Below are positions 10,868 to 64,000 of a DNA stretch of 64,000 nt, in pieces (the stretch's first letter is position 1; every line of letters begins with the position of its first letter). The translations under genes and the position numbers were made by a program. Under the pieces are notes generated by a model. The model searched no databases, was not told the DNA's origin, and worked only from the letters and a program-made list of their open reading frames with translations. The stretch is from a virus (lineage: Duplodnaviria; Caudoviricetes), in IMG/VR virus record IMGVR_UViG_3300046318_000318; one strand, written 5' to 3'.

Positions 10868-12250
10868 TTAAGCGTCTTTATACTGAGCCATAGATTGAGC
10901 GCAATAGCTCAAAGCCTCTTTACCGGCCTTAACGTTCCATGCAGGCGTTTGTGTATAAACACGAGTCAGGGTAGCGTTCAGTCCGTTGAACAAGTCACGA
11001 ATGTCACCAGTAGCTTTTTTAGCATCGTAATGCTCTTTGGTAGCCGTGGCATCAGCATCACTCTTAAGTTGGTTGACAACATCGGCTCTGCTAATTGCTA
11101 CGTCAACAGTTTTACTCAGTTGTGTGGAAAGTTTTTCAATATCGGCTTTCTTTTTACCAAAACTGATAGTCTCGTCCATCAACTTAATGACGCTATCACA
11201 AATATTGAAAATACCACTGCTGTCTAAAGTCTTGACAGTTTTCTCACCCTGAGATTCAACAGGTCGGGTAGCAAACTCAACAGTAAAAGACGCCACGTCA
11301 ACATTATTGTTTTTGGTGGTAGATTTGATAAAGTTAAGTGTGGCACCACCCACGTAACCACCCACGGAAGACACTTCCACAAGTTTCTTATCGTTAGATG
11401 CTTTATTGTCTTTTGTGTAAGCGACAGTGTGTTCACCAGCTTTCATGATGCCGCCTACGTACGCTTCAGCAGCTTTAGACGCGTTCTCAACCTTGTCACC
11501 GGTCGCACTGCCTTGTGCTGTGATGGCGACTTCGAGAGTACTGATGTTTTTATACGCATCAGCGCTACTATCGCTAACAGATTTCGTCAGCTTAAAATGA
11601 TTTTCAAGAACTGTTGTCACGCTATTGTCTGCTATTTTACCACCTTGTGCAAAGGCAGCGAAAACAGACTTTGAGGTAAAAGTGTCTTTTTCTTTACGCT
11701 TACTACCCATTTTGGAAGCTTTTTCCTTCATAGCTTCAGCAGCTTTTTTAACTTTCTCAGCATTCACGAAAAAGCGAGAGAAGAAGTCTTTGATTTTCGT
11801 CCAGGTATTCTTGACGAATTTCTTGATGGCTTCCCAGATACGCTTGATGGTGTCGGTGAAACCGTTTTCCAGAGCGACTTTGGTGGCAGCCAGACGGGTG
11901 TTGCTGGAACCGAAAGATTCGGTAGCAGGCATCAGACGATGTGCGTGTGGGATACCCAGGCGGTTGCAGATCGACTCAACGACCACTTGAGCCACTTGAG
12001 CGGTGGTCTCGTCCATACCTTGACCAGACTGAACAGTCTGAGCCACCACGTCCTGAACTTTTTCCAGGGTTTCAGCATCAGCAGCAGCAGCGACGGTGTC
12101 GTCAGCAGCTTGTGCGATTTCTTGTGCTTCGGTAGCCACTTCTTGAGCAGCGTCCGTTGCCTCAGCCATGGCTTGTGCGACGCCTTCGTCGGTACCAACC
12201 ACTTGAGACACTTCATCGTTTTCCATTGCGAAAACTAAACCTTTAGCCAT
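10868..12250 (-). CDS. Major inner-head/ejection protein (phiKZ gp93 / SPN3US gp53-54 family)
   Basis: Start moved to ATG 12250 (GGAG RBS; MAKGLVFAMEND); Ala/Glu propeptide, ATESFG...VALE|NG motif, then amphipathic IKRIWEAIKKF helix. Confidence 0.85.
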   Translation of the reverse strand: MAKGLVFAMENDEVSQVVGTDEGVAQAMAEATDAAQEVATEAQEIAQAADDTVAAAADAETLEKVQDVVAQTVQSGQGMDETTAQVAQVVVESICNRLGIPHAHRLMPATESFGSSNTRLAATKVALENGFTDTIKRIWEAIKKFVKNTWTKIKDFFSRFFVNAEKVKKAAEAMKEKASKMGSKRKEKDTFTSKSVFAAFAQGGKIADNSVTTVLENHFKLTKSVSDSSADAYKNISTLEVAITAQGSATGDKVENASKAAEAYVGGIMKAGEHTVAYTKDNKASNDKKLVEVSSVGGYVGGATLNFIKSTTKNNNVDVASFTVEFATRPVESQGEKTVKTLDSSGIFNICDSVIKLMDETISFGKKKADIEKLSTQLSKTVDVAISRADVVNQLKSDADATATKEHYDAKKATGDIRDLFNGLNATLTRVYTQTPAWNVKAGKEALSYCAQSMAQYKDA

Positions 12251-12355
12251 TTTGAGCACTCCAAAATTAAAATTTAACAAACGTTTGTCGGCTAACTTAA
12301 CAAATAAAGCATAGATCTTTATCTGCTCTATCACCAGCCATGTAATAGATAAAAA

Positions 12356-13852
12356 TCACTGAAGGTGCGTCAGATTGTCTTGAGCGAACTTAATATTTGC
12401 TTTCAAAACTCTAACAGCAAAATCATGGATATCCATACTGCCCTTGATATAAACCTTTTCAGCGAAGATGGTCTTAACGTAAATTAGCTCTATGAGACTT
12501 GTCTTTACGTCCAACTTATTAGAAGAGTGGAAGATTTGATTTAGATAAGCTTTGAAGCTATACCTTAATTTCATCTTGCTGCTCATAAGCTGTTCAAACA
12601 ACTTCTTATGTTCTATACAAGCCAGCATCAGTTTATTCAATTCTTCTAAGTAAGCTTTTAACTCACTCTTAGAAAGATAAGCTATGCTATTAACATGCTT
12701 ATAACTGCTGGTGTCTGCAACCAAAGCTGCATAACTATGCTGGTATGCTTTTACATAAGCATCTTCATCTGCTATACCGTTAACAGGCACCACGAGCATT
12801 AACTTGACATCGCCAGGTAGAATTGCATCGCTTATTAAGCTATGTGTGTTCTCTGGTATGTCTGTATAACCCTCTAGGTTACCTGGCTTCACTATAGATC
12901 CAAGTTCATTCAGCTTCAATATATTAGAAGGTTTTGCATTTACAGTACCAAGATCTTGTTGTACAAAGTTCATGGTCTGTGTGAAATCATCTAAAGAAGA
13001 CTTCACCAAAACACTCATTGTGTTGTTCATGAAAGAAGAAAAAGCTTTGTTGTTTGCTTTTAAATCTACTGAACTTCCTATCTTAAGCTGATCTATGACT
13101 TTGGCTGAGGTGTAACTTCCTTCGGCTTTGTCTTTTTTAACGCTATCCAGGCTTTTATGCAAAGCCACAAGTTGGTGTTGTAGATCTTCATAGCTATCAA
13201 ACCTTCTGCTAATATAGTCTTTAAGATCACCCATGCTGTTAAACAGAAACTTTACCAAATGCACCGCAGTGAATAACACGGCTGACCCCACATTCTTAAG
13301 CACGACCAAGCCGTACTTAAGTCCTAACATACCGAACCATTTCATGAAGTCAAGCGTCTTACTGCCTAACTCCTGATCGTCCATGTATTCTTTAGCGATC
13401 TGAGCTTTAGGTAAGACATAGGCTTCAGAAGCCACTTGAGCTTTCTGAGGCGTGCTAACAGGCTCTTCTGTGTCCTGAGCTTTGTCTTTATCTTTACCGT
13501 CTTCAGACTTATCCTTTTCACCATCCTGAGTTTTCTGAGTCTTCTCAGGTTCTTGAGCTTTCTGACTTTCGTCACCAGCGTCTTGGCCAGCTGGCTCCTG
13601 TGCAGACTGACCAGTCTGAGCAGAACCATCTTGACTACCAGCATCCTGAGCATTAGCGTCTTGTGATCCTGTATCCTGCGTTGGTTGTGCAGTCTGTCCT
13701 GCATCAGGCTCTTCAGCAGCCTGTTGAGCTTTAGAGGATTCTTCTATGTCGAAAGCCAGCAAATGAGAAGAACTGGTCTTGCGGGCCAGTTCTTCTTGTT
13801 TTTCTAGTTCGTCGACAGCAAGTTCCTCTATGACGTATTTGAATTGTGTCAT
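12356..13852 (-). CDS. Virion head protein (phiKZ gp92-like) with low-complexity acidic propeptide
   Basis: 498 aa; QDAGSQD-type repeats, ASE motif, KIGSSVD motif; synteny. Confidence 0.65.
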   Translation of the reverse strand: MTQFKYVIEELAVDELEKQEELARKTSSSHLLAFDIEESSKAQQAAEEPDAGQTAQPTQDTGSQDANAQDAGSQDGSAQTGQSAQEPAGQDAGDESQKAQEPEKTQKTQDGEKDKSEDGKDKDKAQDTEEPVSTPQKAQVASEAYVLPKAQIAKEYMDDQELGSKTLDFMKWFGMLGLKYGLVVLKNVGSAVLFTAVHLVKFLFNSMGDLKDYISRRFDSYEDLQHQLVALHKSLDSVKKDKAEGSYTSAKVIDQLKIGSSVDLKANNKAFSSFMNNTMSVLVKSSLDDFTQTMNFVQQDLGTVNAKPSNILKLNELGSIVKPGNLEGYTDIPENTHSLISDAILPGDVKLMLVVPVNGIADEDAYVKAYQHSYAALVADTSSYKHVNSIAYLSKSELKAYLEELNKLMLACIEHKKLFEQLMSSKMKLRYSFKAYLNQIFHSSNKLDVKTSLIELIYVKTIFAEKVYIKGSMDIHDFAVRVLKANIKFAQDNLTHLQ

Positions 13853-13864
13853 AGAGCCTCTTTC

Positions 13865-14509
13865 TTAATAACCACGGATATTGTTAGACACATCCACGAT
13901 ATCATATCTGCTACCAAAGATAGTAAACAGAGACAACAACATATCAGCAAATCGTTCAGTATCCCCAGACCAATGCTGCACCAACTCTAAAGTAGTGATG
14001 TTTTCAAGCACTGCTTGATTATGCGTAAAAGCGTTCTTATACTTACCAGCATAAGTATTCTTAAAGTAATAATCAAAGTCAACCAACGTAGCTTTACTAG
14101 CCAAGTTGTTTTCAAGCATACGATGCCATTGAACAGCCTGTATTTTACGCGGCTGTTTGTAAATGGCAAACTCAATAGTCTCAGTTAAGAAAACTGTGTG
14201 TAGTTGAGATATGTTTCCCGATTTATACTGAATATTAATCCAGTCGTAGAAATACATCTTTGGGAATTGTCCAAAAGCAAATTTTAAAACACTCTCGATA
14301 AACTCAGTAGAATTTAACAGCTGTTTATTCTTAGATGCTCTTTTGTAAAAGTTAGTAATCTCTTCACTGTAAAAGAAATCATTTCTGTTTTTCAAATGAT
14401 CTTTATTAAGAGTGAAGTCAACAAAGGGGTCTTTTTCCATTTGGGTTTTGGTCAGACCTTTTTCCCGCATGGCTATAAACCCTGATTGAAGTATGGCGTA
14501 TCGTTCCAT
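13865..14509 (-). CDS. Conserved hypothetical protein (gp91-like by synteny)
   Basis: 214 aa; GAGG RBS; operon position. Confidence 0.7.
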   Translation of the reverse strand: MERYAILQSGFIAMREKGLTKTQMEKDPFVDFTLNKDHLKNRNDFFYSEEITNFYKRASKNKQLLNSTEFIESVLKFAFGQFPKMYFYDWINIQYKSGNISQLHTVFLTETIEFAIYKQPRKIQAVQWHRMLENNLASKATLVDFDYYFKNTYAGKYKNAFTHNQAVLENITTLELVQHWSGDTERFADMLLSLFTIFGSRYDIVDVSNNIRGY

Positions 14510-14518
14510 TTATATACC

Positions 14519-15430
14519 TCAATCTTCGTTAAGATCTTCTTCCACACGCTTCAGTTCGCGTTCGATCTTGTCGATACGACTCTGAAGATATGTGATTTCC
14601 TGTTCCAGTTTAGGGTCGCTTTTGTTCTCAGCTTTTAATTTTAGATGCAGAAGACGAAGTTCAAGGACTTTCTTTTTGTCCTTGTTAGCCTTATAACGAC
14701 CGGCTTGCCATTCAGAGATAGCCAAACGAACATGATAGATAGGGTTGTAATAGAACCCGGACATCATATACCCTGTGCTAAAAGGATCTAAAGTAGATTC
14801 CTTGTAGACGCCAGACACAGACATCTGAGTCTTTTCATTTACAACCACCTCAGGAATCTCTTTGATGACTTTTCTGAACTCATTAGGTTGAACAGCATAC
14901 TCACCCAGAACCTTAGCAAAGCGACTCATGTTGTTTTCGACGTGTTTGATCTTAACAACAGAGAGATCAAAAGCATCGCTGTCTTCAGAAACCACAGCAG
15001 TTTCCTGAACATAAGCATAGTTCAACAGATCGAGCATGTAGCCAGATAAGAAAGAAATGCTTTCAGCAGCTCTGACCATCAAGACTTTACGAGCCGTCAT
15101 GCCATCACGTATAACGTCTTGTTCCATCTCAGCTTCTATAAGAGTAGCCAGATACTTGGTGTTTTCCACCAGGTTAGGCAAACGTCTATAGATATCAGCG
15201 ATAACACTGCTTTGCTTAATAGACTTGTCGTTGATATTTCTATAGAACTCATCAGAGATATCTTTGACTTCAGAAGATTTGACTCTGTTCATCTTAAAGA
15301 ACTCTGTAGCTACAGAGTAATTAGGAACCACAGAGTTCTCGATCTCAGCCAGAGTCACACGCAGATCTTCTATGATCCTATTCTTTTCTAAGCTGGGTAG
15401 AAGACGTTTTGCAAAATCGTACAGTTTCAT
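14519..15430 (-). CDS. Inner head protein (phiKZ gp90-like)
   Basis: 303 aa; NPIYHVR motif and C-terminal coiled coil (KLEQEITYLQSRIDKIE). Confidence 0.75.
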   Translation of the reverse strand: MKLYDFAKRLLPSLEKNRIIEDLRVTLAEIENSVVPNYSVATEFFKMNRVKSSEVKDISDEFYRNINDKSIKQSSVIADIYRRLPNLVENTKYLATLIEAEMEQDVIRDGMTARKVLMVRAAESISFLSGYMLDLLNYAYVQETAVVSEDSDAFDLSVVKIKHVENNMSRFAKVLGEYAVQPNEFRKVIKEIPEVVVNEKTQMSVSGVYKESTLDPFSTGYMMSGFYYNPIYHVRLAISEWQAGRYKANKDKKKVLELRLLHLKLKAENKSDPKLEQEITYLQSRIDKIERELKRVEEDLNED

Positions 15431-15449
15431 TTTTTAACTTTCTTTTGAT

Positions 15450-16598
15450 TTAGAACACAGGAGCATGACCGGTGTTCAACGACTTCAGGATATCCATGAT
15501 GTCAGGACCTTTGTCTTTACCGACAGACTTCAGTTCTTTATAAGACAGATCAGTATAGGACTGGATACCGCGTGTGTAGAAAGTCACACGCTGCCATTCA
15601 CGGTCGATCACCACGATAACCATGGCGTAGGTGTTCTCAAATGCTTGTTCGCGGGTCTTGAAGTTAGTCAGGCGACCGCCTAACTTACCTTCTAGTTCAC
15701 GAGCGATTTCTTCAGTCACCACAAACAGATTAGAAGCAGAAACCAAAGAAGGGTTCTTGGTCAGAAGACCGTACTTCTTAGAGTTATTCACACGACGCAT
15801 GATTTCAAGCATGGTGCCTGTCTCATCACCGATCATAGCGCGTTTGTTCTCATCTATCAAATCTTGACAGAAAATCAAATCACGAATGAAAGAGATGCGG
15901 CCGGATCTCCAAGCATGGAAACGTTCTACGATAGAAGTATCGTCCTTATGCACAGCCAGCAAATGTCCAATCGTGCTATTAGGTACAGCAGAAACCATCA
16001 ATCTGAAGTTAACAGGGATTGTAACCTGACTAGCACAATCATCTTTAACACCTTCAACAGACTTGTTATAGGTGATGCTGATGTTAACCAGCTTGCCCAC
16101 AGACAAGTTAGAGATATCCATGATGACTTCACTGGGGTCTTTACCTTTAGGGCCAGAAGGACCTTTACCACCGTCTTTGTCACCTGGGGCTTCTAAAGCC
16201 AATCGAGTAGAGGTAGGCAAGCTATATTTATAAGACTCTAGAGAAAGAGTAGATAAAGACTCACGAGAGACTTTCTCTTCTAACAGAAAACCTGTCTCAT
16301 CCCGATCTGGGTTGAGCTTATCCAGAATTCTAACTACTTCTACATCGTTCACTGTGGTCAACATGTGTACAGCTTGCAGGTAGTAACCAGCAAACATATT
16401 CAACAAAACATTGTTGACATCAGACATGCATTCAATATTAAGGCAGTCTTTAGATACTATAGTCAATGGCTCCACTCTGGTCAGCCGGGTTGCATCTGAA
16501 AGCGATTTTGTCGTGTAGTAATTTGTGAAGCTGTCTTTGACTGTATTGATCGCTTTAGCGATCGAGGTCAAAGCCGTATTGATAAGACCTAGTTCCAT
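15450..16598 (-). CDS. Inner head protein (phiKZ gp89-like)
   Basis: 382 aa; TRVEPLTIVS, GYYLQA and WRSGRISFIRDLIFCQDLID motifs; SLE/ALE sites. Confidence 0.8.
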   Translation of the reverse strand: MELGLINTALTSIAKAINTVKDSFTNYYTTKSLSDATRLTRVEPLTIVSKDCLNIECMSDVNNVLLNMFAGYYLQAVHMLTTVNDVEVVRILDKLNPDRDETGFLLEEKVSRESLSTLSLESYKYSLPTSTRLALEAPGDKDGGKGPSGPKGKDPSEVIMDISNLSVGKLVNISITYNKSVEGVKDDCASQVTIPVNFRLMVSAVPNSTIGHLLAVHKDDTSIVERFHAWRSGRISFIRDLIFCQDLIDENKRAMIGDETGTMLEIMRRVNNSKKYGLLTKNPSLVSASNLFVVTEEIARELEGKLGGRLTNFKTREQAFENTYAMVIVVIDREWQRVTFYTRGIQSYTDLSYKELKSVGKDKGPDIMDILKSLNTGHAPVF

Positions 16599-39012: not shown

Positions 39013-40328
39013 CTTATTGTCCAGTAAAGTCGCTCAGCTTCACAGCTTACTCTCTTTACCCGGTGTGCTAAGACACCCGCCTGTACTTTCATACAGGAAC
39101 AGACTATATCTTCATCCTTCCTTTCGGTTAGGATGTCTCCCATTTCGAATCTTGCTAAGATCCTACGCCTTACGGCTAGTCGTTGGCCACACCCCATGTA
39201 AGTATATATGTACATACTTAGTTAGGAGCTTCGGTGCGGATTGCCCATATATCTTTATTAGTTTTACCTTACCTGTGTGATTAGCACAGCCGTTAACTCA
39301 TTTTCATGGTTAAGTTGGTCAATAAAGTTTTGGGGGTTCCCCGGCAATTAGAGAGATTTTTTGTATTTACATTACTGTAAATAGGTGGCAGGATTTTATA
39401 TTTCATTGGTAGTTACCAGACTTATTTCGATGTGTCGATCTAGCTAAGTCTAAAGATATTCTCTGGCCAGGTGGTAAATCCAGTCAGATATCTTAAAATG
39501 TAGTTCTCATATGGGATTTCATGATTATCATCCAAAAGCTCTATGACTTTATTTTGGTCTAGCTTAGTTTGATTTATAAAATCTTGAAAATTCCATACGG
39601 TTTGTTTACGCTCAGTGACATTGTAAACAATTATATCGAAAGTGTTGAACAACGTTTCCTTAAAACCTAAACCGCGAAGTAGTCTTGTTTTAAACTTCTC
39701 ACGGTCTATATTTAGTTGTCTTATCCACTCTTCAATAGGTTGTATTATATCACCGTACTTGACGTTTTGATGGTAGTATCTTACATTCACCATTTGCTCT
39801 CTTGGATTACTCCATTTACAATTAGCTTTGTAATAACCCTTATCGCCGTCTATTCTGTCGAGCGTTGTGTTGTCCGGTCTTGGACCCATATCGTCGTAAA
39901 AGTGCTTGAATGACTTAAGCCAGCTTTCACATATGGTGATCCCGCGTTCACCGTAAAGATGGTATTTTATGTTATTTTTATTAGTGCAACGCTGGATCAT
40001 ATTCTCCCAAGTAGAATATTCCCTGCTTTGCCATAAACCATGCTTTGTTTTATTAGCCTGACGGTAACACCCACAACTTTTATTTGTAGGTCTTTTCAAT
40101 AGAGGTAGACATATATTTTTAATTACGCCGCAATCACACTGGCATTTAAAAATACGCCCGCTCTTACCCATCGGAGCTTCTTCGAGAACTGTTAACATAT
40201 TGAAACGTTGTCCAATATCAATCTTGCTTCTGCTCATTTCATACTCACCTCTTTCTTTTAAATGATTTCAAATCGACACATCTGAAATCTAGGTTGTTGT
40301 TCTACCAATGAACTATAAATTTTTATTT
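39013..40328 (-). mobile_element. Group I intron in the nvRNAP beta gene, carrying an HNH endonuclease
   Basis: 5' exon ends in GGT(U) and intron ends in G; P AATTGCCGGGGAA, Q AATCCGCA, R CCAACGACTA, S AAGATATAGTCT; IGS GCCACC (39384-39389) pairs with exon GGUGGU; splicing restores HGG|KGV. Confidence 0.9.
39440..40237 (-). CDS. Intron-encoded HNH-family homing endonuclease
   Basis: CQCDCG...KSCGC, MIQRC...YGERGITIC..W, TLDRIDGDKGY...NCKW; AT-rich. Confidence 0.88.
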   Translation of the reverse strand: MSRSKIDIGQRFNMLTVLEEAPMGKSGRIFKCQCDCGVIKNICLPLLKRPTNKSCGCYRQANKTKHGLWQSREYSTWENMIQRCTNKNNIKYHLYGERGITICESWLKSFKHFYDDMGPRPDNTTLDRIDGDKGYYKANCKWSNPREQMVNVRYYHQNVKYGDIIQPIEEWIRQLNIDREKFKTRLLRGLGFKETLFNTFDIIVYNVTERKQTVWNFQDFINQTKLDQNKVIELLDDNHEIPYENYILRYLTGFTTWPENIFRLS

Positions 40329-47635: not shown

Positions 47636-48493
47636 TTAGAGTTGAGCTAACATCCTAGCTACCATGGGTTCTGGAATGTCAGTGGATAAATCCATAACTA
47701 CTTTGGCTTTGGTCGTCATGGAAGTCCAACCTCTTTTAATAGATACATCGTAGACTTGTTGACGTATCTTAATAAGAGCAGGTTGAAACAGCACGCGATC
47801 ACCAAACACCATCAGAAGTTTACTCAGGAAAGGAAGATGTTTCATATCTCTTTCCCCAAGTGGGTAATACTTAGAATTCCATTCATATCTGGGTTTGAGT
47901 TTACCAGTATGACTTTCAAGTAAATCCAATCGACTGAGTTTCTCGTGTGAGAGCAGATCCCAAGGTACGTGGGATAAAATCAAAGCCCTCGTGCTATGAG
48001 GAGCTTTGATATAATCTTTGAACTTTTGAACATCTGGGCTGTCTTTGAATTTACCAAGCGTCTTTACAAGGATAGCTTTTTCATGTTTCTGAATGTCTGT
48101 TTTATCAGCTCTCAGTTCCACGATAGCTGACTTGGCTTTGGAAACAGCCTTGTCATACTCCATGATGTAAAAGACAGGAGTGGCAGTACCACCGCCTTCT
48201 ACTTTAAATAAACTTTGGATAAGTTCGATTTCTTGCTGGATAACTTCGGCAAAATCATCAGCCGTGGCTTGTAACTTAACTTCTTTATCTACAGACCCAA
48301 GTATGTTTCTGTAGAGTGTTGAAAGATTGACAAAACAGGAGTTGTAATTACTCAGTATGACCTGATTGGGTATTTCTCTTTCAGGATCATAAGGAGTCTG
48401 TCTTCCTGCAAAGACAGACTCAAAAGCCAGAGACGTACCTATGCTTAGTGGAAAAGCACTGATGTCTCTGTTAAATAAAGGGTTCATAGTCAC
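47636..48493 (-). CDS. PIN/5'-3' nuclease-like core protein (phiKZ gp66-like)
   Basis: 285 aa; FPLSIGTSLAFES, VNLSTLYRNILGS, LLESHTG. Confidence 0.65.
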   Translation of the reverse strand: MTMNPLFNRDISAFPLSIGTSLAFESVFAGRQTPYDPEREIPNQVILSNYNSCFVNLSTLYRNILGSVDKEVKLQATADDFAEVIQQEIELIQSLFKVEGGGTATPVFYIMEYDKAVSKAKSAIVELRADKTDIQKHEKAILVKTLGKFKDSPDVQKFKDYIKAPHSTRALILSHVPWDLLSHEKLSRLDLLESHTGKLKPRYEWNSKYYPLGERDMKHLPFLSKLLMVFGDRVLFQPALIKIRQQVYDVSIKRGWTSMTTKAKVVMDLSTDIPEPMVARMLAQL

Positions 48494-49641
48494 CTCATGT
48501 TGGTAAGTGTGTTGGTCATGATTGTGTTAAATATGGTCTGTTGAGCGGTGTTAAGACTATGCTTTTTTTGGATCTCGTCAAATAACAAAGTTGTTATGTT
48601 AGATCTTTCTATTTGCACAGAGCTGTACTCCATCCCCAATAAGTCATTGATATACTCATTATGAACAGCTTCTTCTTCATCCTCTAAGCTTTTTTTACTT
48701 AGGTGATAGAGAGGATACCTGAGTTTCAATTCCTCAAAGGCTTGATAAACACCGTGATCTTTACGGGCCTTAATTCTAATATATGAGTTTATAGGAATCT
48801 TTAAGAGCTGTTTGTCTATGGATTCTAAACATCTATCCACATCAGCTAACTTAAGAGTGATTGTTTTGAAGATCTTGGCTTTTTTATTCTCTAGAAAGAA
48901 GAACTTATTACCATCATCAGGATCCAATATCATCAACATAGCACCCTTGGGTTCTTCTTCCCCGTGAGTAAGTCTATCAAAAGAACCTTGAGCTAAGATT
49001 CTTTCGTATGTCGAGTGGGTGTGGATATGTCCTATATTGATAAAGTACTTGACTAACTCAAGATAAGATAACTCATCATGTTTACTGGTGGTCTTACCCA
49101 CACCAGGTAACTGATAGTTAAACAAACCATGCATGATAGCTATATCCACAGTTTTCAACTGCATCTCAGCCATCAAAGTCTTTACCTGATCTAAAGTTTC
49201 TTGTGTTGTGGCAGCCCATTCATCAGGCACATAAAGAACGTGTATGTCATGTTTCTCCATGTACTCTATAGAAAGAATGTCTATGTATTTGAAATCACCA
49301 GGTGTCTGCGATATCTTCCAAACAGTTTCTGCTTGAGACGATTGATTCCAATCATGACTGGGCGTACCTTTCAGGATCCTCAGTGAGATGTTCTCTCTAG
49401 AGCAAAATCTAGATAGTCTATCCAACCACAGTTTGATAAGGTGCGTATTCTCATCATCCATGTCTAGTAATCTGTCAAACAAATCACCAGCTATGAAGAT
49501 GATATCTAGTTTACAATGATCGCTTTTAGGGCTATAGTCTTCAAAGAAAGTATCTAGATTTGCAATAATTTCCTCTGTTGGGTTATTCTTACTACCCAGA
49601 TGTACATCACTGAGAACTAAATACCTTAAACGTTCAGTCAT
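48490..49641 (-). CDS. sbcD: SbcD/Mre11-like metallophosphoesterase nuclease (phiKZ gp65-like)
   Basis: SDVHLG, AGDLFD, GTPSHD, MHG, GHIH motifs. Confidence 0.9.
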   Translation of the reverse strand: MTERLRYLVLSDVHLGSKNNPTEEIIANLDTFFEDYSPKSDHCKLDIIFIAGDLFDRLLDMDDENTHLIKLWLDRLSRFCSRENISLRILKGTPSHDWNQSSQAETVWKISQTPGDFKYIDILSIEYMEKHDIHVLYVPDEWAATTQETLDQVKTLMAEMQLKTVDIAIMHGLFNYQLPGVGKTTSKHDELSYLELVKYFINIGHIHTHSTYERILAQGSFDRLTHGEEEPKGAMLMILDPDDGNKFFFLENKKAKIFKTITLKLADVDRCLESIDKQLLKIPINSYIRIKARKDHGVYQAFEELKLRYPLYHLSKKSLEDEEEAVHNEYINDLLGMEYSSVQIERSNITTLLFDEIQKKHSLNTAQQTIFNTIMTNTLTNMR

Positions 49642-50661: not shown

Positions 50662-51285
50662 TCACTCACCAAAGATATCGGTAGGGTCACGACCCTCAGC
50701 CAAGATCTGTTGGATCTTATCCCATGTCAACAATATATCGTGACGTTCTTCTGTTGAAAGATCTTGATGACCTTCAAATAGTTCATCACAATACTGTTTA
50801 GCCACCCACTCATACTTACCATCCACTTCAATGTCCTGGACCACACCATCCATCACCCTGCGGTAATAGTAGTGCTGATCATTACTTTGCTTAGGATCGA
50901 TATCGATATAAGTGTCGCTGTAGCCATTGACGAGTTGTCTATGGTACATGTTTCGAAGGTCCGGCTGTGCCATGATGTAGTTTTGCATCATGGGTGTAGC
51001 GCTTCTCATACCTTCGATGTCATCTATCTGGATAATGACGTTAGGTTGATATAACCCACCGGCATGTCTGATAGCAGCTTTAGCTATCCTGATAGCTGTG
51101 TTATCATGGATTCTTGCATACAACTCTTTAGCACCTTGCATAAATCTTTGACCAGTTTCAGTCAGCGCATTACTGAACGACTGCATTTGGTTTTGGAAAT
51201 ACTGCAAAGTGCTTGGAGATTGATTTGGGAATGCAAGGTAATCAAAAGCCAAAGGTGAAGCTTCGATCACATTGATTTGATACAT
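50662..51285 (-). CDS. Conserved core protein (gp59-like by position; possibly an import factor)
   Basis: Start moved to ATG 51285, which overlaps the beta'-N exon 3 stop (TAATG); MQNYIMAQP..R..Y.....GYSDTY, DPT. Confidence 0.65.
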   Translation of the reverse strand: MYQINVIEASPLAFDYLAFPNQSPSTLQYFQNQMQSFSNALTETGQRFMQGAKELYARIHDNTAIRIAKAAIRHAGGLYQPNVIIQIDDIEGMRSATPMMQNYIMAQPDLRNMYHRQLVNGYSDTYIDIDPKQSNDQHYYYRRVMDGVVQDIEVDGKYEWVAKQYCDELFEGHQDLSTEERHDILLTWDKIQQILAEGRDPTDIFGE

Positions 51286-51452
51286 TAACTCTCCAACCAA
51301 GATGAGATTGTTGCAATATTAGGCTTTGGGATACTTACGTTACCTGAAACCTGGAACGGCTTAGTCATCTGAAATATGTTAAACTCTGGTGAGAGAGGAT
51401 ACCACATATTAGACATCTTTTCGTCAAGTGAGATAGAGACATTGAGAGCGTC
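51285..51452 (-). CDS. rpoC: nvRNAP beta'-N subunit, exon 3 (DALNVSISLD...SWLES*; phiKZ gp56.1-like)
   Basis: Manual translation, 55 aa; supplies the last Asp of NADFDGD; not in the ORF track. Confidence 0.85.
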   Translation of the reverse strand, partial: DALNVSISLDEKMSNMWYPLSPEFNIFQMTKPFQVSGNVSIPKPNIATISSWLES

Positions 51453-51797
51453 CATAACTACCTCACTCTAGCTTTAACTAAGTTCGCTAAACTTATTGAT
51501 CTTGCTTAAGGATCCTGATACTTTCATATCAGATTAGACTATATCTTCATCTTTCGATGCTCTTCGTTTCCACTCGCTTGAGTGTACTCCCATGTGGGAT
51601 AGTCGTTGACCACACTCCATGTAAGTATATATGTCTATACTTAGTTAGGAGCTTCGGTGCGGATTGCCCAATCCTTGTATCTTTTACCATACCCAGATAG
51701 TTACTCTGGCCACTGCATATATTTCTATCGCAGTTTGGTGCACAAGGCTCTAAGGAGTTTCCCGCAATTAGAAGAGTTTAAACGACGGCAACACTCT
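51453..51797 (-). ncRNA. ORF-less group I intron (345 nt), second intron of beta'-N
   Basis: Follows GGT and ends in G; IGS GCCGUC pairs with exon GACGGU; P AATTGCGGGAAA, Q AATCCGCA, R GTCAACGACTA, S AAGATATAGTCT. Confidence 0.88.
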
Positions 51798-51818
51798 ACC
51801 GTCAAAATCAGCATTTGG
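51798..51818 (-). CDS. rpoC: nvRNAP beta'-N subunit, 21-nt micro-exon 2 (PNADFDG)
   Basis: CCA AAT GCT GAT TTT GAC GGT between the terminal G of intron 1 and the start of intron 2. Confidence 0.88.
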
Positions 51819-53809
51819 CTTATTGTCCAGTAAAGTCGCTCAGCTTCACAGCTTACCCTCTTTACCCGGTGCGCTTACACACCCACCTGTACTTTCATAC
51901 AGGAACAGATCATATCTTCATCCTTATTAAAGGATGCTCTCCGCTTCTTCCCTGCTTAGGGCTTTACTCGGTCGCAACTCCGATGATCGTTGAACTTTAC
52001 GCATGGTTGATAAGAATCAACTTTAGCGTCTTAGCTGCTGATTACCCAATTCTTATATTTTTCAAACTATCACGCTCATCGTTTCCGATCACGTTGTAGT
52101 ATATAAGACTCTAAAGGACTTCCCAGCAATTCAAAGAGATAACTTAGTCAATTACTCAACTAAGTGCCTTATCTCATCATTATTAAAATACAATGTCAAT
52201 CGCCACACACCGCCTATCAATGCTTTTCTTCTAGCTATTGTAGGGATATATTGTCTAGCATACCCAAATTGCTGACTAATATCTATAGGACTTGTTATAA
52301 TCCTAGTTTCGCCAGTTTCAACGTTTTCGATAAAATATCCGTTACCCCTAAAAGATCTTTTATCGAGACATAATTGTTTAAAGTACCTCAGCTCCTTATC
52401 GGTAAGATCTTTAAACTGTCCGTTGAAACTAAATTGCCAACCTTTAATCGGAATGTTCTTTAATCTTTTATTTTTAATAGATAGTTGAACACCCCATGAA
52501 ACACCAGTTATTTTCTCACAAGCTGCCAGCGATTCAAATTTACGTTCTTTGCGTGTGAATATATTTCTAGCAGTAACTGGTATTTTTATTTGTAAATCTT
52601 CTAAGGATGGTTTTTCCTGAGGCCATGGTCTTGCATCTAATTTTCGTTTGAAACATAATCCGTCTGAATAGATTTTAATATCGGAAGATCTAAGTCTGAC
52701 GGACACGGTTAGTTCAGAATATCCAAGTTTCAGAGAGCAATCCCTAGCACTTTTATATTCAGTCACCTCATCCGTGATTATGTTTTTAACAAGTATTGCT
52801 GAACCATACCTGAATTGATCGTACTCATTTTCTAAATTTTCATAATTTTTCCATTCTTTTAATTCAGATAGCCATTGAAACTGCATGTAATTTTCCCAAA
52901 GTTTACAACCGGGTTTTGTTTTTAACCGATGGTAAAGTAAATCATTACTCAAGCCTAATGCAATTGCGCATTGCGTCGGGTTATCATAAATAGTGATTTC
53001 ATTGGTTTTAACATTTCTAGTTATGACGTCTATGGTATACTTTTTCTCATTTTCAAGAATTCTATTTACTTTTTCATCAGATCTATCACAATTCGAATAA
53101 ATGACATTTCCTCTAGGTGTCACCCATTCTAAATTATCTAAGGTGTCAAAGCCAGGTATCTCATTTTTATGATTTACGTACAGCGATTCAACGTTTCTAG
53201 GATAATCTAGCCATGCTAAGCACATAGCTCTGTGTCTGAAAAATTTGTAAGATGTATTCTCATTAAGGGAAACATCAGGAATACCTGAATAGGAATGGTA
53301 ACCATCTCTATCACAAAAAGCTTTTTTATCCACACCAGTTATCAAATTTCTAACTTTTCCTTCCTTTGTTATACCATATCTTGTAAAACCAGGAATATAA
53401 GCATGATCTTTGTGTACTGGATGTGATAAACCAACTGGAAATTTCCAAATCAAGTTGCTAGGATGAGAGTTATTAAAATCACCGTCCTCGAACATCAAGT
53501 GTAATAAATGCACTTGACTTTCATGAACGTGAACGGGCTTAAAAGCCGAAGCTATGATAAACTCTATTGGATATAGACCAGGACCTCTTATCCAATCTAA
53601 GAAAATCAAAGTGCTTCCTGTTTCAGTTGAGATACACTCAATCTGAATGTTCTCTCGCGATATGACATCACCTTCTGAGTTAACAGAATAACGACCGTCA
53701 GACCAGGGTAGCGAAAGATAGTTTTGGGTTTGTAAATATTTACTAAGCATATATCCTTTCTATATAGAAAGGTATGCTAAACGGCGATTGACAATAATGA
53801 TAAGAATTA
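51819..53809 (-). mobile_element. Group I intron (1991 nt), first intron of beta'-N, carrying an HNH endonuclease
   Basis: Starts TAA after GCT and ends ...GGACAATAAG; P AATTGCTGGGAA, Q AATCAGCAG, R GTTCAACGATCA, S AAGATATGATCT. Confidence 0.88.
52152..53750 (-). CDS. Intron-encoded homing endonuclease: two HNH-like modules plus four NUMOD1/IENR-like repeats
   Basis: FRHRAMCLAW...VNHKNE.....LDNLEW; upstream degenerate EDGDFNNSHPSNLIW; repeated N..T.E...Y.S...C...LG units; AT-rich. Confidence 0.85.
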   Translation of the reverse strand: MLSKYLQTQNYLSLPWSDGRYSVNSEGDVISRENIQIECISTETGSTLIFLDWIRGPGLYPIEFIIASAFKPVHVHESQVHLLHLMFEDGDFNNSHPSNLIWKFPVGLSHPVHKDHAYIPGFTRYGITKEGKVRNLITGVDKKAFCDRDGYHSYSGIPDVSLNENTSYKFFRHRAMCLAWLDYPRNVESLYVNHKNEIPGFDTLDNLEWVTPRGNVIYSNCDRSDEKVNRILENEKKYTIDVITRNVKTNEITIYDNPTQCAIALGLSNDLLYHRLKTKPGCKLWENYMQFQWLSELKEWKNYENLENEYDQFRYGSAILVKNIITDEVTEYKSARDCSLKLGYSELTVSVRLRSSDIKIYSDGLCFKRKLDARPWPQEKPSLEDLQIKIPVTARNIFTRKERKFESLAACEKITGVSWGVQLSIKNKRLKNIPIKGWQFSFNGQFKDLTDKELRYFKQLCLDKRSFRGNGYFIENVETGETRIITSPIDISQQFGYARQYIPTIARRKALIGGVWRLTLYFNNDEIRHLVE

Positions 53810-55051
53810 AGCGCGCACTGTTAAAATGTGCATTCCAATAGTGAGGTCATTTGGGTTCTTTTTGAACTTAGTAATCTTCACTCGTTGAGCCGACCCCTGC
53901 AAAAGGCTCGGATTTCTTTGGAGACATACATACAAACCTTTATCAGGCGCTTCGTCTATCAGCTCCTGCATAAACCTTTCTAACAAGGGGTGGTGTTTGT
54001 TAGTATGTTTGTATAGGAAACCAATAGAGTCATTCAGACCCATGCCGTAACGCCGCAGCTTATTCAACATGTGGATACGGTAAGCTGTGGTGGCCATACA
54101 CCAAGGAGCTTCTATTTCATCATACTCTTTACCCGCTGTAATAGAGATGATAACTGCTCGGAATGAGAAGTTGGTTCTGGCTCCGAACATGTGTTTCCTG
54201 AAGTGACCGTGCTTATGAGCCATCAACAACAGGGTGTCGTTGTAGAAATCACAAAGCATGATCAAGGACTTAACTGTTCGGTTTTGCTTGGTCTTACTTG
54301 TCTGATCGTAAAAGTCTCTGTCAATAGACACCATCGTGTTGACAGCATTCACAGCCTTCATAATGGAAGGATCTGTGTATGTGCCTAGCGGTTGTGTATC
54401 AAAGATCAGGACTATCTTGTTCGGCAAAGGCAGATACTCACTGAAAATTATCTTACGATAGTCTTTTAGCAAGGATTGAAGATAGTCTATCCTCTCACTC
54501 TTAAGCTCGAACTTCTGAGTCTTAGGTGCAAACTCAGTCATGGAGAAGAGAGTATCCATGATGTAATCGAAATTAGTCACAAAGTAATTGTAACCGCGCT
54601 CGATATTGCACGTCATCAGTTTGGTCAGCACTTTGTCAGGTGTTTTAGCTGCTGTCGTATAGCTTGTGTTACAAAGCCATTCGATCACAGAGAACCCTGA
54701 TTTGGTAAACCTCTTGATGAGCATCATGAAAACCACAGGAGAAATAAGCTTCTCTACCCCTACTGGTTGTTTGAGCCAGATGACTGGTTCGATATCTGAC
54801 ACAACTGAAGCTTTAACTTCAGTGTGACAGACTGGACAGATAGTACTCTTAGAATATTCACCTTTGGTATGTCCACATTGACAACTGGGAATCAGACTGA
54901 TCTGATCACTAGAGAGATGTGTGGTAAGTTTCTCTTTGACAGCCTCACGTTCTTCAAGCGTAGAACACGCCATGTGGTTGATGAGGGTGGGGGTATGACG
55001 TAATGTATAAAACATCTCGTCGTAGTTAACCAGTTCTTGGATAACAGGCAT
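53810..55051 (-). CDS. rpoC: nvRNAP beta'-N subunit, exon 1 (phiKZ gp55-like)
   Basis: CQCG...CPVC Zn finger, GHFRKHMFGARTNFSFRAVI, QRNPSL; spliced product about 476 aa. Confidence 0.92.
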
Positions 55052-55195: not shown

Positions 55196-57064
55196 TCAGT
55201 AGCGGTAACCACCCATGTTGATGTAGTTCTGCATATGCTGAGGAGCCATGCCGAAACCCATGAACGATTGAGTAGGTGCCAGCAGACCAGCGTTGGCGAA
55301 ACTTGCAACACCGCGTTGGTTGTTGAAGTCTGCACCAGACATTGGGCTGTTGATACGCACCATCAGGTTGCAAGCCTGAATACCCTTACGCAGAGCGTCC
55401 AGGAACGTAGCGCTGAAGGTCACTCGTTGAGCATAGCCTGTAAACACAGCGGACTCATTGGACATGCTGGAGATCATACGCTTGCGATCGGAGAGACGCT
55501 CTGCCAACGAGATGTTGGTGTTCAGGTACGTTTCGGTGAACTGACGCAATGCATGCACATTGTTGGCACCAAGGATGTTGGCAGCTGCCAAGTAGTCGAT
55601 GTCACGGATGTCACGCTGAGCACCGTTGCGATCGGTGTAGTAACCCAGATGGACACGGTTACCCACATCCACGAACATCTGTGCGTTGTTCGGGAAATAG
55701 CGACCGAAGTTGCCAGCAGTCAGTTCCTGAGCAGCTTTGTACATGATGTCGTAAGCACCACCACCGCTTGCAGCAGCTGCACTGTACAGACCAGTATACC
55801 ATGCCTGAGGACCAGCTTCTGGGCAGTCAACAGCAACCATCAGACCAGGCTGAACCAGAGTGTTCAAGAACTGACCCAAGTTCTCAGTCGTAAAACTGGA
55901 AGACTTGGTGTCGAGGATGTTGCTGATACCAGTGGGTTGATTGTCAAAGTTGCCTTCGATGTTCAACGCACCTGCATCACGCAGATCCAAATCCTTAGTC
56001 ATCTGGGGTCGGAAGATCTGGTAGTAGTTGTTGTTCAACGCCAGAGCATCCATGTTCGCCACTGCCAACAGCATGTTAGCTGGAGTGTATGCGTGAGCAC
56101 TGGACAGAGTGGTGATCACAGCACGAGCTGCAAACTTCTGTGGCAAACGCTGTTGTGCAGGCATGTAGGGGTTGACCATGGGTTCACGAGGAGCCCAGAG
56201 CATTTCTACAAAGCCGCCAACTTCACTGATGCGAGTCTCACGACCGCCGCTGTTCAGACTGCGGTTCTGATTTTGGTTCTGATTGTTCTGAGCTGCAAAG
56301 CTCAGTTGGAAGTCAGAACGAATCAAGTTACCGACATCGTCAGCCACAGGTGTCGAACCAAAGGTCATGTTGATGACCAATTGTTGACCCGTAGGGATCT
56401 GCGACAGGTTCAGATCCTGGAACGTAGGAACCAGTTGAGACAACTCAGTACCGTTAGCCAAGCCAGCGTTCAGTGCCAGCTTATACACAGCAGCTTTGTC
56501 CTTCGTATTGAAAGTAGCTGGTACGACAGTGGCGTCGGTGAACCGCAGTTCGTGCTGAGGAAACGCACGACCAACAGCCGCCTTGGCTTTTGCAATCAAG
56601 ATGTCGTCGAGAGCATCGCCCGCTACCCGATACAACTCGATTTGCTTTTGGTGGTGGTACTGCACCACAGGAGTGGGTTTGTCACCAGTTGCTTCGAGGA
56701 TCAGCACATGGAATGCTACCTTGTTAGGTACATCCTTCAGACGCATCGCCACGACCAGGCAAGAGAATGCCAGAGCCGTTTCGTTCTGGTTGTCCAGATC
56801 CAGAATGCTGATCAGACTGTCAGAACTTGCGTTCTTGTAGATCTCAATAAGTGCGGTCTTGAGGTCGTTGTAAGCCTCAGACCCAATTGAGCGACCGATA
56901 GGGGCACCGAAGATGTTACCGCCGGAACCGAAGTTCCAAGAAGATTTCACAGGTGCTTGTTGGGTAGCAGTAGCTGCTTGACCAGGAGAACCGGCTTGGG
57001 TGAAAGCGGTTGCTTCAGCAGAGGTTGCAGAAGCGGAAGAGTTGTTACCAGTATTGAGAGCCAT
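55196..57064 (-). CDS. chmA: Chimallin, major phage nuclear shell protein (phiKZ gp54-like)
   Basis: 622 aa; RSLNSGG, GFVEMLW.P, RAVITTL, D.R..GALNIE, RVHLGYY.D..G..RDIRDIDYLA, GYAQRVTF; upstream of beta'-N; strong codon bias. Confidence 0.93.
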   Translation of the reverse strand: MALNTGNNSSASATSAEATAFTQAGSPGQAATATQQAPVKSSWNFGSGGNIFGAPIGRSIGSEAYNDLKTALIEIYKNASSDSLISILDLDNQNETALAFSCLVVAMRLKDVPNKVAFHVLILEATGDKPTPVVQYHHQKQIELYRVAGDALDDILIAKAKAAVGRAFPQHELRFTDATVVPATFNTKDKAAVYKLALNAGLANGTELSQLVPTFQDLNLSQIPTGQQLVINMTFGSTPVADDVGNLIRSDFQLSFAAQNNQNQNQNRSLNSGGRETRISEVGGFVEMLWAPREPMVNPYMPAQQRLPQKFAARAVITTLSSAHAYTPANMLLAVANMDALALNNNYYQIFRPQMTKDLDLRDAGALNIEGNFDNQPTGISNILDTKSSSFTTENLGQFLNTLVQPGLMVAVDCPEAGPQAWYTGLYSAAAASGGGAYDIMYKAAQELTAGNFGRYFPNNAQMFVDVGNRVHLGYYTDRNGAQRDIRDIDYLAAANILGANNVHALRQFTETYLNTNISLAERLSDRKRMISSMSNESAVFTGYAQRVTFSATFLDALRKGIQACNLMVRINSPMSGADFNNQRGVASFANAGLLAPTQSFMGFGMAPQHMQNYINMGGYRY

Positions 57065-63140: not shown

Positions 63141-63174
63141 AAAAAACAGAGAAGCCGAAGCCTCTCTGTTTTTT
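63141..63174. terminator. Terminator hairpin
   Basis: A-run + acagagaagc-cgaa-gcctctctgt + T-run; UUCG loop on the minus strand. Confidence 0.7.
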
Positions 63175-63358
63175 CACAACTTTGCTGCCGACTGAACTAT
63201 CAGAACGTTTAATTGAAAACTGTCGGCTAGTTATTCAATTTGAGATTAATTCAATCGACTTACAACGCACAATCTTTTTACGACCTTGGTCGGATGTGAC
63301 TTATCAAGGTATGTTCCAAGTGGGGATTGTCGTGTTGGCTTCATAAACTAAAACTCGT

Positions 63359-63682
63359 TCAGTGTTCCACAGTATTAGGCAACTGTGGTGTTATGAGAAA
63401 GTTGAAGGGATCCATGAGCTTCATCATATCTGCTTGGAAATCCAGAAGTTCGTCGATCATACGGCATTGGAAGCTTGTGGCGTCCTTAGGTGTTCTCATA
63501 CCACCGTTAATCACATCGTTAGCCATGTTAATGGTGTCTGAGATGTATTTAGATAGATCGACTGGATCTAGATTGTTTGCTATTTGATAGATTTGAAGGT
63601 TTCTCAATGTGGATCGAATAAAGATTTCTATGTACCTTTTATTCAGTTTGGTGAGACTATCTTGGTGTCTAGCTTTGGACAT
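63359..63682 (-). CDS. Hypothetical protein
   Basis: 107 aa ORF with phage-like composition. Confidence 0.7.
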   Translation of the reverse strand: MSKARHQDSLTKLNKRYIEIFIRSTLRNLQIYQIANNLDPVDLSKYISDTINMANDVINGGMRTPKDATSFQCRMIDELLDFQADMMKLMDPFNFLITPQLPNTVEH

Positions 63683-63722
63683 GTCTGTGATAGGGATTAG
63701 TTAATGTTGCTACCACTCTATG

Positions 63723-63998
63723 TCAGAAACCTTTGGTTGGGTAAAGGTTCCTTAAAATTGCATCGGCAAAAGCAGAGCCTTTTGTACTGGTCCCAGTCAT
63801 CCCCCCCGATTGCGAATCAAAATTGTTAGACAGAGAATAATCCACAATCATGCCAGCACCTACGATGGCAGATTTCATAGTCTCATACTGAGTGCGCTTA
63901 GCCAACAAAGTCGACAACGCATTGAAATTAATTACGGTAGCTTGTTCGATCTGGGGTGTAGCCTCTGTCTCAAACCAAGCATCAAGATCTTTATTCAA
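63723..63998 (-). CDS. Hypothetical protein (may start beyond the window)
   Basis: 91 aa ORF at the window edge. Confidence 0.6.
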   Translation of the reverse strand: MNKDLDAWFETEATPQIEQATVINFNALSTLLAKRTQYETMKSAIVGAGMIVDYSLSNNFDSQSGGMTGTSTKGSAFADAILRNLYPTKGF

Positions 63999-64000
63999 AC

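Follow-up and report, generated by a model that had tools for sequence, protein, structure and literature searches.

Two group I introns interrupt the NADFDGD codons of a jumbo-phage RNA polymerase gene and leave a 21-nt exon between them

HNH-bearing introns at the catalytic residues of jumbo-phage RNA polymerases have published precedent (PMC11620839, PMC11512511, PMC8287921). In phiKZ, the gp55/gp56/gp56.1 locus carries a single group I intron within the stretch coding for NADFDGD, with the HNH ORF (gp56) ahead of the ribozyme core. In PhiPA3, the HNH enzyme gp210 is encoded in a single group I intron at the catalytic Asp residues of a chimallivirus polymerase, in this case the beta subunit of the virion RNA polymerase (RNAP), and its nicking of the homologous phiKZ polymerase gene as well as its competitive effect, a lowered phiKZ fitness, were shown experimentally (Birkholz et al. 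2024, PMC11620839). Mitochondria already offer very short exons lodged between group I introns, namely a 1-bp exon in placozoan cox1 (PMC5436844) and mini-exons of under ~4 codons (PMC10352661). Among huge phages, the Jug phages carry ~18 group I introns per genome, with splicing confirmed by metatranscriptomes (PMC12880540).

The locus analyzed here lies in a window of 64,000 nt from an uncultivated freshwater jumbo phage, in which the sequence-only reading had proposed a gene consisting of exon 1, a 1991-nt intron, a 21-nt exon, a 345-nt intron, and exon 3. All coordinates and sequences of these exons and introns were reproduced on the minus strand, and coordinates, Rfam matches, and alignment agree with the model. 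Exon 1 (53810..55051, minus strand; 414 codons) encodes most of a non-virion RNAP (nvRNAP) beta'-N subunit of the phiKZ gp55 family, matching PHROG 2987 (E 1.4e-115, profile 1-413), phiKZ gp55 (30% identity, E 1e-63), and the FLC9 protein (41% identity). It ends in TVRA (GCT) at 53810 (...ACAGTGCGCGCT), and the following triplet is TAA, so that unspliced RNA would yield a truncated protein without the catalytic loop. The micro-exon (51798..51818, minus strand; 21 nt, CCAAATGCTGATTTTGACGGT) encodes PNADFDG, which in the alignment supplies exactly the residues that exons 1 and 3 leave out, and contributes two of the three Mg-binding Asp residues; its ADFDG is the sole one in the six-frame translation of the 164-kb record. 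The third Asp is supplied by exon 3 (51285..51452, minus strand; DALNVSISLDEK...WLES plus stop codon), which starts with GAC at 51452 (DALN...) and matches PHROG 2987 at profile positions 422-475. The spliced product of 476 aa exhibits full-length homology to the phiKZ gp55 family including the NADFDGD Mg-binding loop and can be aligned across ...APNADFDGDALN... without gaps to its FLC9, RP12, and Moabite homologues, which are uninterrupted, all three exons being intact and in frame. Exons 1 and 3 had no match in Pfam, the identification coming from the PHROG profiles.

The genomic context is equally typical of the family. The nuclear-shell (chimallin) gene (PHROG 4795, 55196-57064) is immediately upstream of exon 1, and the RNAP gene is followed by a PHROG 3254 gene (50662-51300) and then by an SbcD-like nuclease, an order that is the same in FLC9, RP12, Moabite, and phiKZ. 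A megablast search of the 4-kb region against phage records returned only a 41-nt match, to an intron core, with no sequenced isolate close. Two group I introns interrupt the codons of the Mg-binding loop, and both must be removed to rebuild TVRA-PNADFDG-DALN, as had been claimed and as both the gap-free alignment and the joined RNA described below confirm.

The phiKZ gene is of the same family, in the same place beside chimallin, with a comparable HNH-bearing intron in the same coding stretch and a similar intron 3' end (CUGAACAAUACG against CUGGACAAUAAG). The earlier comparison with phiKZ was correct, and the intron near this position there is a single one at PN|AD (KAPN|ADFDGD), two codons away, whereas the window phage has two, at RA|PN and DFDG|D, with the 21-nt exon between them, and the intron cores of the two phages are only ~50% identical. 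Work by Landthaler and Shub in 1999 is said to have described three group I introns in orf142 of the Staphylococcus phage Twort (cited in PMC11878797 and PMC11620839), a gene comparable in combining several such introns with a precedent for exon skipping and different in not encoding a polymerase catalytic motif. PhiPA3 shares the HNH-bearing intron at catalytic Asp codons, and one of its introns is 78% identical to window intron 2 over 133 nt; its interrupted gene is the virion beta subunit, and its enzyme has been assayed. The mitochondrial cases resemble this locus in the very short exon, the two independent group I introns, and the conserved essential codons, and are also explained by successive intron insertion. 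They concern eukaryote organelle genes rather than a phage polymerase active site in two paralogues, and the phage clade reaches up to three introns inside seven codons. The Jug phages likewise combine many group I introns in essential huge-phage genes with joints validated by metatranscriptome reads, yet belong to another clade and involve other genes (terL, nrdD, polymerase), the accessible part of their report describing no micro-exon in a catalytic motif (PMC12880540). The earlier statement that no bracket this tight had been described may hold for phages, for which a literature search found none, but not for group I introns generally (PMC5436844, PMC10352661).

Intron 1 (51819..53809, minus strand; 1991 nt) was recognized by its core (52196-51886), which matches Rfam RF00028 over model positions 1-253 with 68.7 bits against a cut-off of 50 bits, and by the RNA joint. 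The rules of a U before the 5' splice site and a terminal G are true of both introns, and intron 1 ends in ...GGACAAUAAG. L009, a close relative like L007, has an ORF-less intron in this position, to which the core is 95% identical. A putative internal guide, GGCAC (52164..52168, minus strand), can be read at a position homologous to that in L007 and L009, ~1.65 kb from the 5' splice site and behind the endonuclease ORF. Its pairing with the end of exon 1 (G-CGCU) would be poor, comprising U.G, C-G, G-C, a C.A mismatch, and G-C, that is, 3 bp, the mismatch, and 1 bp, the U being present within a weak P1. The homologous position reads GGCAU in L007, where it forms 5 bp with the exon sequence GUGCU, and GGUAC in L009; no convincing P10 pairing for intron 1 was found in the window phage, L007, or L009. 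A P1 of only ~3 bp (GAU/GUC) was also noted for intron c of L007.

An ORF of 532 aa (52152..53750, minus strand) with its own Shine-Dalgarno-like AAAGGA occupies the P1 loop of intron 1, its last eight codons overlapping the guide and P2, as read against the ORF-less introns of L007 and L009. It matches two HNH endonuclease families, PHROG 59 (E 8.5e-15) and PHROG 959 (E 4e-12), and is 27% identical to phiKZ gp56 over the HNH core (...VNHK...NLEW..., E 1e-7). The Pfam HNH models, HNH_3 included, gave no significant match, and a weak NUMOD1 match fell under the cut-off. The product may be an active homing endonuclease, and a block of 93-99% identity around the introns, shared with L009, would be indirect evidence that it cuts or nicks the intron-less allele near the insertion site.

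Intron 2 (51453..51797, minus strand; 345 nt, ORF-less) matches the full RF00028 model (83.7 bits, model positions 1-253, cut-off 50), ends in ...GUAGUUAUG, and is likewise bounded by an RNA joint. Its guide, GUUGCCGUC (51784..51792, minus strand), pairs with the end of the micro-exon to form P1 and with the start of exon 3 to form P10. In P1, GACGGU at the very end of the micro-exon forms 6 bp with GCCGUC, with U.G at the splice site, and P10 joins guide GUU to exon 3 GAC. The counterparts in L007, GAUGGU/GCCAUC and GAU/AUU, exhibit compensatory changes in both helices, and L009 also has GAUGGU/GCCAUC, which bears out the claim that P1 of intron 2 uses micro-exon bases. The intron folds with a z-score of -2.9, P1 being recovered in the fold, and is 96% identical to intron d of L009 and 81-82% identical to intron d of L007.

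Both joints proposed for cDNA inspection, 51818 to 53810 and 51452 to 51798, are present in one contig of RNA run X20, a freshwater metatranscriptome; this transcript evidence, one assembled contig from one environmental RNA run, skips exactly 1991 nt and 345 nt and retains the 21-nt piece between them. Over the micro-exon this contig agrees with the window, both junction U residues included, and over 175 nt of exon 1 it departs from it by a single base. Both joints are absent from the two DNA runs compared, X1 and X7, and an X1 DNA contig has the micro-exon contiguous with both introns. A twintron was ruled out, since the 21 nt are kept in the RNA contig. Other joints within intron 2, skipping 194 and 134 nt, have short sides, look like cross-mapping from related intron cores elsewhere, and were not counted. 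No partial-splicing joints are listed in the RNA contigs. A further RNA run, X24, holds a contig of a 97.6%-identical strain reading TVRAPNADFDGDA, with GCG and GGC at the junctions, so that the U is missing before both 5' splice sites; this is probably a transcript of an intron-less allele, present nearby. The window introns would be expected to self-splice without helper proteins.

Intron content varies among the relatives. L007 and L009 each have four ORF-less introns in the same gene, three of them within the motif, which is cut as VRA|PNAD|FDG|DAL, leaving 12-nt and 9-nt exons. Near relatives thus range from the likely intron-less allele to two introns in the window phage and four in L007 and L009. 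Where L007 and L009 share an insertion site, the identity between their introns is only 53-62%, so these are of different lineages; with the L009 introns, the two window introns share 95-96% identity. Nucleotide identity between the window and L009 rises from 72% to 93-99% at the codon site QRN|PSL, stays there through both introns to ~300 nt past exon 3, and drops beyond to 60-75%, the other genes of L009 being ~72% identical to those of the window phage; this block looks like a co-conversion tract. Among cultured phages, many tblastn matches of the FLC9 protein end at residues 415-423, where a motif intron and a divergent C-terminus are inseparable.

The motif is likewise interrupted in the paralogous virion RNAP gene of the same record, where the split surrounds a 6-nt exon (TTCGAT) that a relative retains, and the seven RF00028 matches of the 164-kb record all fall within RNA polymerase subunit genes. 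Counting the two paralogues and phiKZ, at least five distinct insertion positions lie within ~9 codons. An intact second NADFDGD beta' gene was also searched for, using a degenerate DNA pattern and six-frame translation, and neither a contiguous DFDGD nor a second copy of the motif occurs in the 164-kb record, which is ~60% complete and past whose end the window itself extends. As a refutation test this was a poor choice, given that phages of this kind have a virion polymerase in addition. In this phage, that paralogue is itself interrupted at the motif.

We consider it highly probable that the arrangement results from repeated selfish intron invasion of a conserved homing hotspot, the tight bracket being a by-product and not a regulatory switch. 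The two insertion sites lie 21 nt apart within the DNA for the universally conserved Mg-binding loop, and homing elements would last best in such sequence, which the host cannot change; for this reason several intron lineages may have piled up at adjacent motif positions in both paralogues, a presumed history of successive invasions. The gene would be transcribed as a single pre-mRNA from which each ribozyme excises itself, intron 2 aligning the exons on its guide, where the six closing bases of the micro-exon form P1 and the three opening bases of exon 3 form P10, and intron 1 presumably relying on the weak GGCAC behind its own HNH gene. Exon ligation would then produce the mRNA for a normal 476-aa subunit. 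The varying intron content and the different lineages at the same sites are the pattern expected of mobile selfish elements, not of a conserved device for control.

Selection could act besides selfish spread, and might account for ORF-less introns having been kept at identical sites in three phages. Nucleus-forming phages may be competing over the DNA that codes for the DFDGD loop in both polymerases, a battleground in which introns, ORF-less ones included, are kept as armour because each disrupts the target of a competing phage's homing endonuclease, the stacking and the 6- to 21-nt exons being scars of this arms race. We advance this only tentatively, as a possibility compatible with a selfish origin of the introns. 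With the protein motif fixed and few synonymous options available, splitting the site would be the available route to immunity, and the presumed intron-less allele does differ by synonymous changes at the junction bases. The fitness cost that the PhiPA3 enzyme imposes on phiKZ (PMC11620839), the clustering of five insertion positions, the splitting of both paralogues, and the retained 6-nt exon all point in the same direction, but the pattern is also explained by defunct introns being retained neutrally, since within a catalytic motif they are difficult to delete precisely. If the battleground exists, an intron at the exact position attacked would confer immunity to the competitor's endonuclease, and transcription in the phage nucleus, apart from translation in the cytoplasm, would let many ribozymes fold undisturbed, despite an ORF overlapping P1 and P2.

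Very unlikely, in our judgment, is the regulatory role that the sequence-only reading had inferred, in which a fixed splicing order and skipping of the 21-nt exon to an in-frame dead subunit form a post-transcriptional gate on nvRNAP activation. Activity does require the removal of both introns, skipping would stay in frame (TVRA-DALN), and group I intron exon skipping was reportedly found by Landthaler and Shub in 1999 in Twort orf142. The skipped joint (51452 to 53810) is nevertheless absent from the RNA contigs, an assembled form in which rare products would be lost, and exon 1 is unable to pair with the intron 2 guide. The 21-nt arrangement imposes no splicing order, since the final 6 nt of the micro-exon suffice for intron 2 and no P10 was found for intron 1; the structural needs of the two introns do not overlap on the exon. 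The relatives, moreover, function with 0, 1, 2, or 4 introns, of unrelated lineages at the same sites. Finally, that the introns no longer splice, the gene is dead in this phage, and the joined contig stems from a co-occurring intron-less strain is extremely improbable, for although an intron-less-looking variant is present in X24 and P1 of intron 1 is weak, the X20 contig has the junction U residues that this variant lacks and differs from window exon 1 by that single base, the exons are intact, the ribozyme cores are full-length and 95-96% conserved, and the 164-kb record holds no second gene copy.

The locus represents a clean natural case, with transcript evidence, of phage active-site codons distributed among two or three exons that are 6 to 21 nt long and flanked by ribozymes, occurring in both polymerase paralogues of one clade and extending the hotspot known from phiKZ gp55 and PhiPA3 gp210 to at least five positions. 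The allele set with 0, 2, and 4 introns is suited to study intron homing, turnover, and co-conversion, the choice of splice sites by ribozymes when the neighbouring exon falls short of the usual combined length of P1 and P10, and perhaps introns as immunity in phage-phage competition. Gene callers will give such polymerase genes as truncated and without the catalytic motif, so that such enzymes can be wrongly taken as inactive in surveys of jumbo-phage polymerases. As a minor observation, the upstream intron of the virion RNAP paralogue has a P1 of only ~3 bp (GAU/GUC).

The gene for the beta'-N subunit of the non-virion RNA polymerase (nvRNAP; phiKZ gp55 family) is laid out on the minus strand as exon 1 (55051-53810), which ends in ...TVRA (GCT) and is immediately followed by TAA, intron 1 (53809-51819, 1991 nt), a micro-exon of 21 nt, CCAAATGCTGATTTTGACGGT, encoding PNADFDG (51818-51798), intron 2 (51797-51453, 345 nt) and exon 3 (51452-51285), whose first codon is GAC. 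Both introns produced whole-model matches to the Rfam group I intron model RF00028, with 68.7 bits for intron 1 and 83.7 bits for intron 2 against a cut-off of 50 bits. The 476-aa joined product, whose peptide across the splice joints spans APNADFDGDALNVSISLDEK, aligned without gaps to the uninterrupted proteins of FLC9, RP12 and Moabite across ...VRAPNADFDGDALN..., and in the PHROG profile exon 1 occupies positions 1-413 and exon 3 positions 422-475, the uncovered gap being the size of the micro-exon. The coordinates, the two RF00028 matches and the gap-free alignment with homologs bear out the exon/intron layout proposed in the sequence-only reading.

Joining of the three exons was observed in the metatranscriptome run X20, where one 336-nt contig (depth 19.8) carries both joints, 51818 to 53810 (skipping 1991 nt) and 51452 to 51798 (skipping 345 nt), with exactly 21 letters between them. 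This joined RNA is a single assembled contig, and the DNA runs compared with it, X1 and X7, come from other samples; neither joint was present in X1 or X7, in whose contigs the micro-exon is contiguous with both introns (e.g., an X1 contig covering 51643-51848 with zero mismatches). As to whether cDNA carries the joined junctions, the occurrence of both joints in X20 RNA and of neither in X1/X7 DNA therefore favors the gene model. The micro-exon is thus a real feature, now supported by RNA.

Intron 2 lacks an ORF, and its guide, GUUGCCGUC (51792-51784), forms a P1 between GCCGUC and the final six micro-exon bases, GACGGU, which places a U.G pair at the splice site; this P1 was also recovered by free folding. 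Through GUU the guide also pairs with GAC, the opening triplet of exon 3. The related environmental phage L007 has GAUGGU and GAU in its exons opposite the guide AUUGCCAUC, a compensatory change in both helices, and a second relative, L009, exhibits a compensatory change in P1. Intron 1 harbors an HNH-type ORF (53750-52152, minus strand; 532 aa) with its own ribosome-binding site, matching PHROG 59 and PHROG 959 and, in the HNH core, 27% identical to phiKZ gp56. By comparison with the ORF-less introns of L007 and L009 at the same site, about 1.65 kb including this ORF sits in the P1 loop, and the guide (GGCAC, 52168-52164, minus strand) and P2 therefore come after the ORF, overlapping its last codons. 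The pairing of this guide with exon 1 is weak, with 3 bp, a C.A mismatch and 1 bp, and a search for a P10 pairing in intron 1 found none. Ordered splicing, as had been suggested for this gene, found no support, since with a 21-nt exon neither intron has to splice before the other. In the versions with a 6-nt exon (L004) or with 12- and 9-nt exons (L007, L009), some bases have to serve both the P10 of one intron and the P1 of the following one.

The insertion site is a known hotspot. In the phiKZ gp55 gene, a single group I intron with an HNH ORF (RF00028, 75.6 bits) interrupts the coding sequence at KAPN|ADFDGD, confirming the earlier comparison with phiKZ, and the mature phiKZ protein reads 417-DFDGD-421 (PMC8287921). 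L007 (from IMG/VR) and L009 (from a metagenome) each carry four ORF-less introns in the nvRNAP beta'-N gene (L007 7144-8664; L009 7144-8647), with cuts at QRN|PSL...VRA|PNAD|FDG|DAL that leave exons of 12 nt (PNAD) and 9 nt (FDG); the full-length protein was reconstructed for both, and of the four introns, the first and third are absent from the window phage. Counting phiKZ, five insertion positions (A|PN, N|AD, AD|FD, FD|GD and DG|D) cluster at the motif in a span of about nine codons. Introns of L007 and L009 at the same site are 62% identical at NAD|FD and 53% at QRN|PSL and, judged by these values, are of different lineages. The window introns, on the other hand, share 95-96% identity with their L009 counterparts, compared with a nucleotide identity of 72% upstream; identity is 93-99% over a tract that begins at the QRN|PSL site, takes in both introns and ends about 300 nt past exon 3, and then drops to 60-75%. 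This jump looks like the pattern that homing with co-conversion would leave. Over 48419-49619 and 51100-53911, the window is a mosaic relative to L009, in which blocks of 90-100% identity, comprising the intron region and an SbcD-like nuclease gene, alternate with blocks of 55-75%; such mosaic relatedness suggests that co-occurring phages recombine frequently.

A contig from a second RNA run, X24, belonging to another strain (97.6% identical in exon 1), reads uninterrupted through TVRAPNADFDGDA, with its loose end at window position 53814. It differs synonymously at GCG, TTC, GAT and GGC, and because the junction codons GCG and GGC place no U at either 5' splice-site position, this variant is probably a natural, transcribed intron-less allele.

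The sequence-only reading had further envisaged a post-transcriptional gate on nvRNAP activation, with exon skipping. The hotspot location, the variable intron content, the mixed lineages, the co-conversion pattern and the probable intron-less allele all speak against it, and no exon-skipped joint was seen among the RNA contigs, from which rare forms would escape. The gate and exon skipping are therefore unsupported speculation, and the two introns are independent mobile elements that splice by the ordinary group I mechanism.

All seven RF00028 matches of the IMG/VR record (163,977 bp, about 60% complete; statements of absence cover this 164-kb record) fall within genes for subunits of RNA polymerases. 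The gene for beta'-N of the virion polymerase (PHROG 2986) lies about 80 kb upstream of the window and is split on the minus strand (L004 9833-10588, or G000:C1 19332-20087, both denoting sequence of this record) as LGAD|FD|GDT: the ORF ends in ...LGAD, a 6-nt exon, TTCGAT (FD), is enclosed by a 411-nt and a 339-nt group I intron, neither with an ORF, and the downstream exon starts with GGTGATACG (GDT...). Homologs of this gene read L(N/G)ADFDGDT, and the 6-nt exon is kept in the relative G001 (L010, ~3508-3513). In the window, a third group I intron (39013-40322, minus strand; RF00028, 81 bits at 39080-39407) with an HNH ORF (39440-40237, minus strand) divides another polymerase subunit gene (PHROG 3295) into exons 41513-40323 and 39012-38086, similarly to phiKZ gp71/72/73; this third intron shares an identical 3' end with intron 1, and metagenome contigs cross-map as a result. 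The large virion polymerase beta-like gene (PHROG 3148; L004 2650-6500, or G000:C1 ~12150-16000, minus strand) contains two HNH-bearing group I introns.

Jumbo-phage polymerases are established hosts of homing introns at their catalytic residues (PMC11620839, PMC11512511), huge phages with heavy, metatranscriptome-confirmed intron loads have been described (PMC12880540), and in mitochondria very short exons, with a minimum of 1 bp, lie between two group I introns (PMC5436844, PMC10352661). Our literature search found no phage gene in which two or three group I introns break an active-site motif up into 6- to 21-nt exons. Since homing introns and short exons are both known and such a split of a phage motif was not found, we regard the present case as a variation on a known phenomenon. 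Stacked introns could shield an unchangeable target from the endonucleases of competitors, and the phage nucleus, by keeping ribosomes off nascent RNA, may render the intron load tolerable.

The source is an uncultivated freshwater phage; Burkholderia phage FLC9, with 41% protein identity, is the nearest isolate. Window positions 63146-64000 are real sequence past the end of the IMG/VR record, and the source genome is therefore longer than the record searched. The stretch was found in about 20 freshwater DNA metagenome runs and two metatranscriptome runs.
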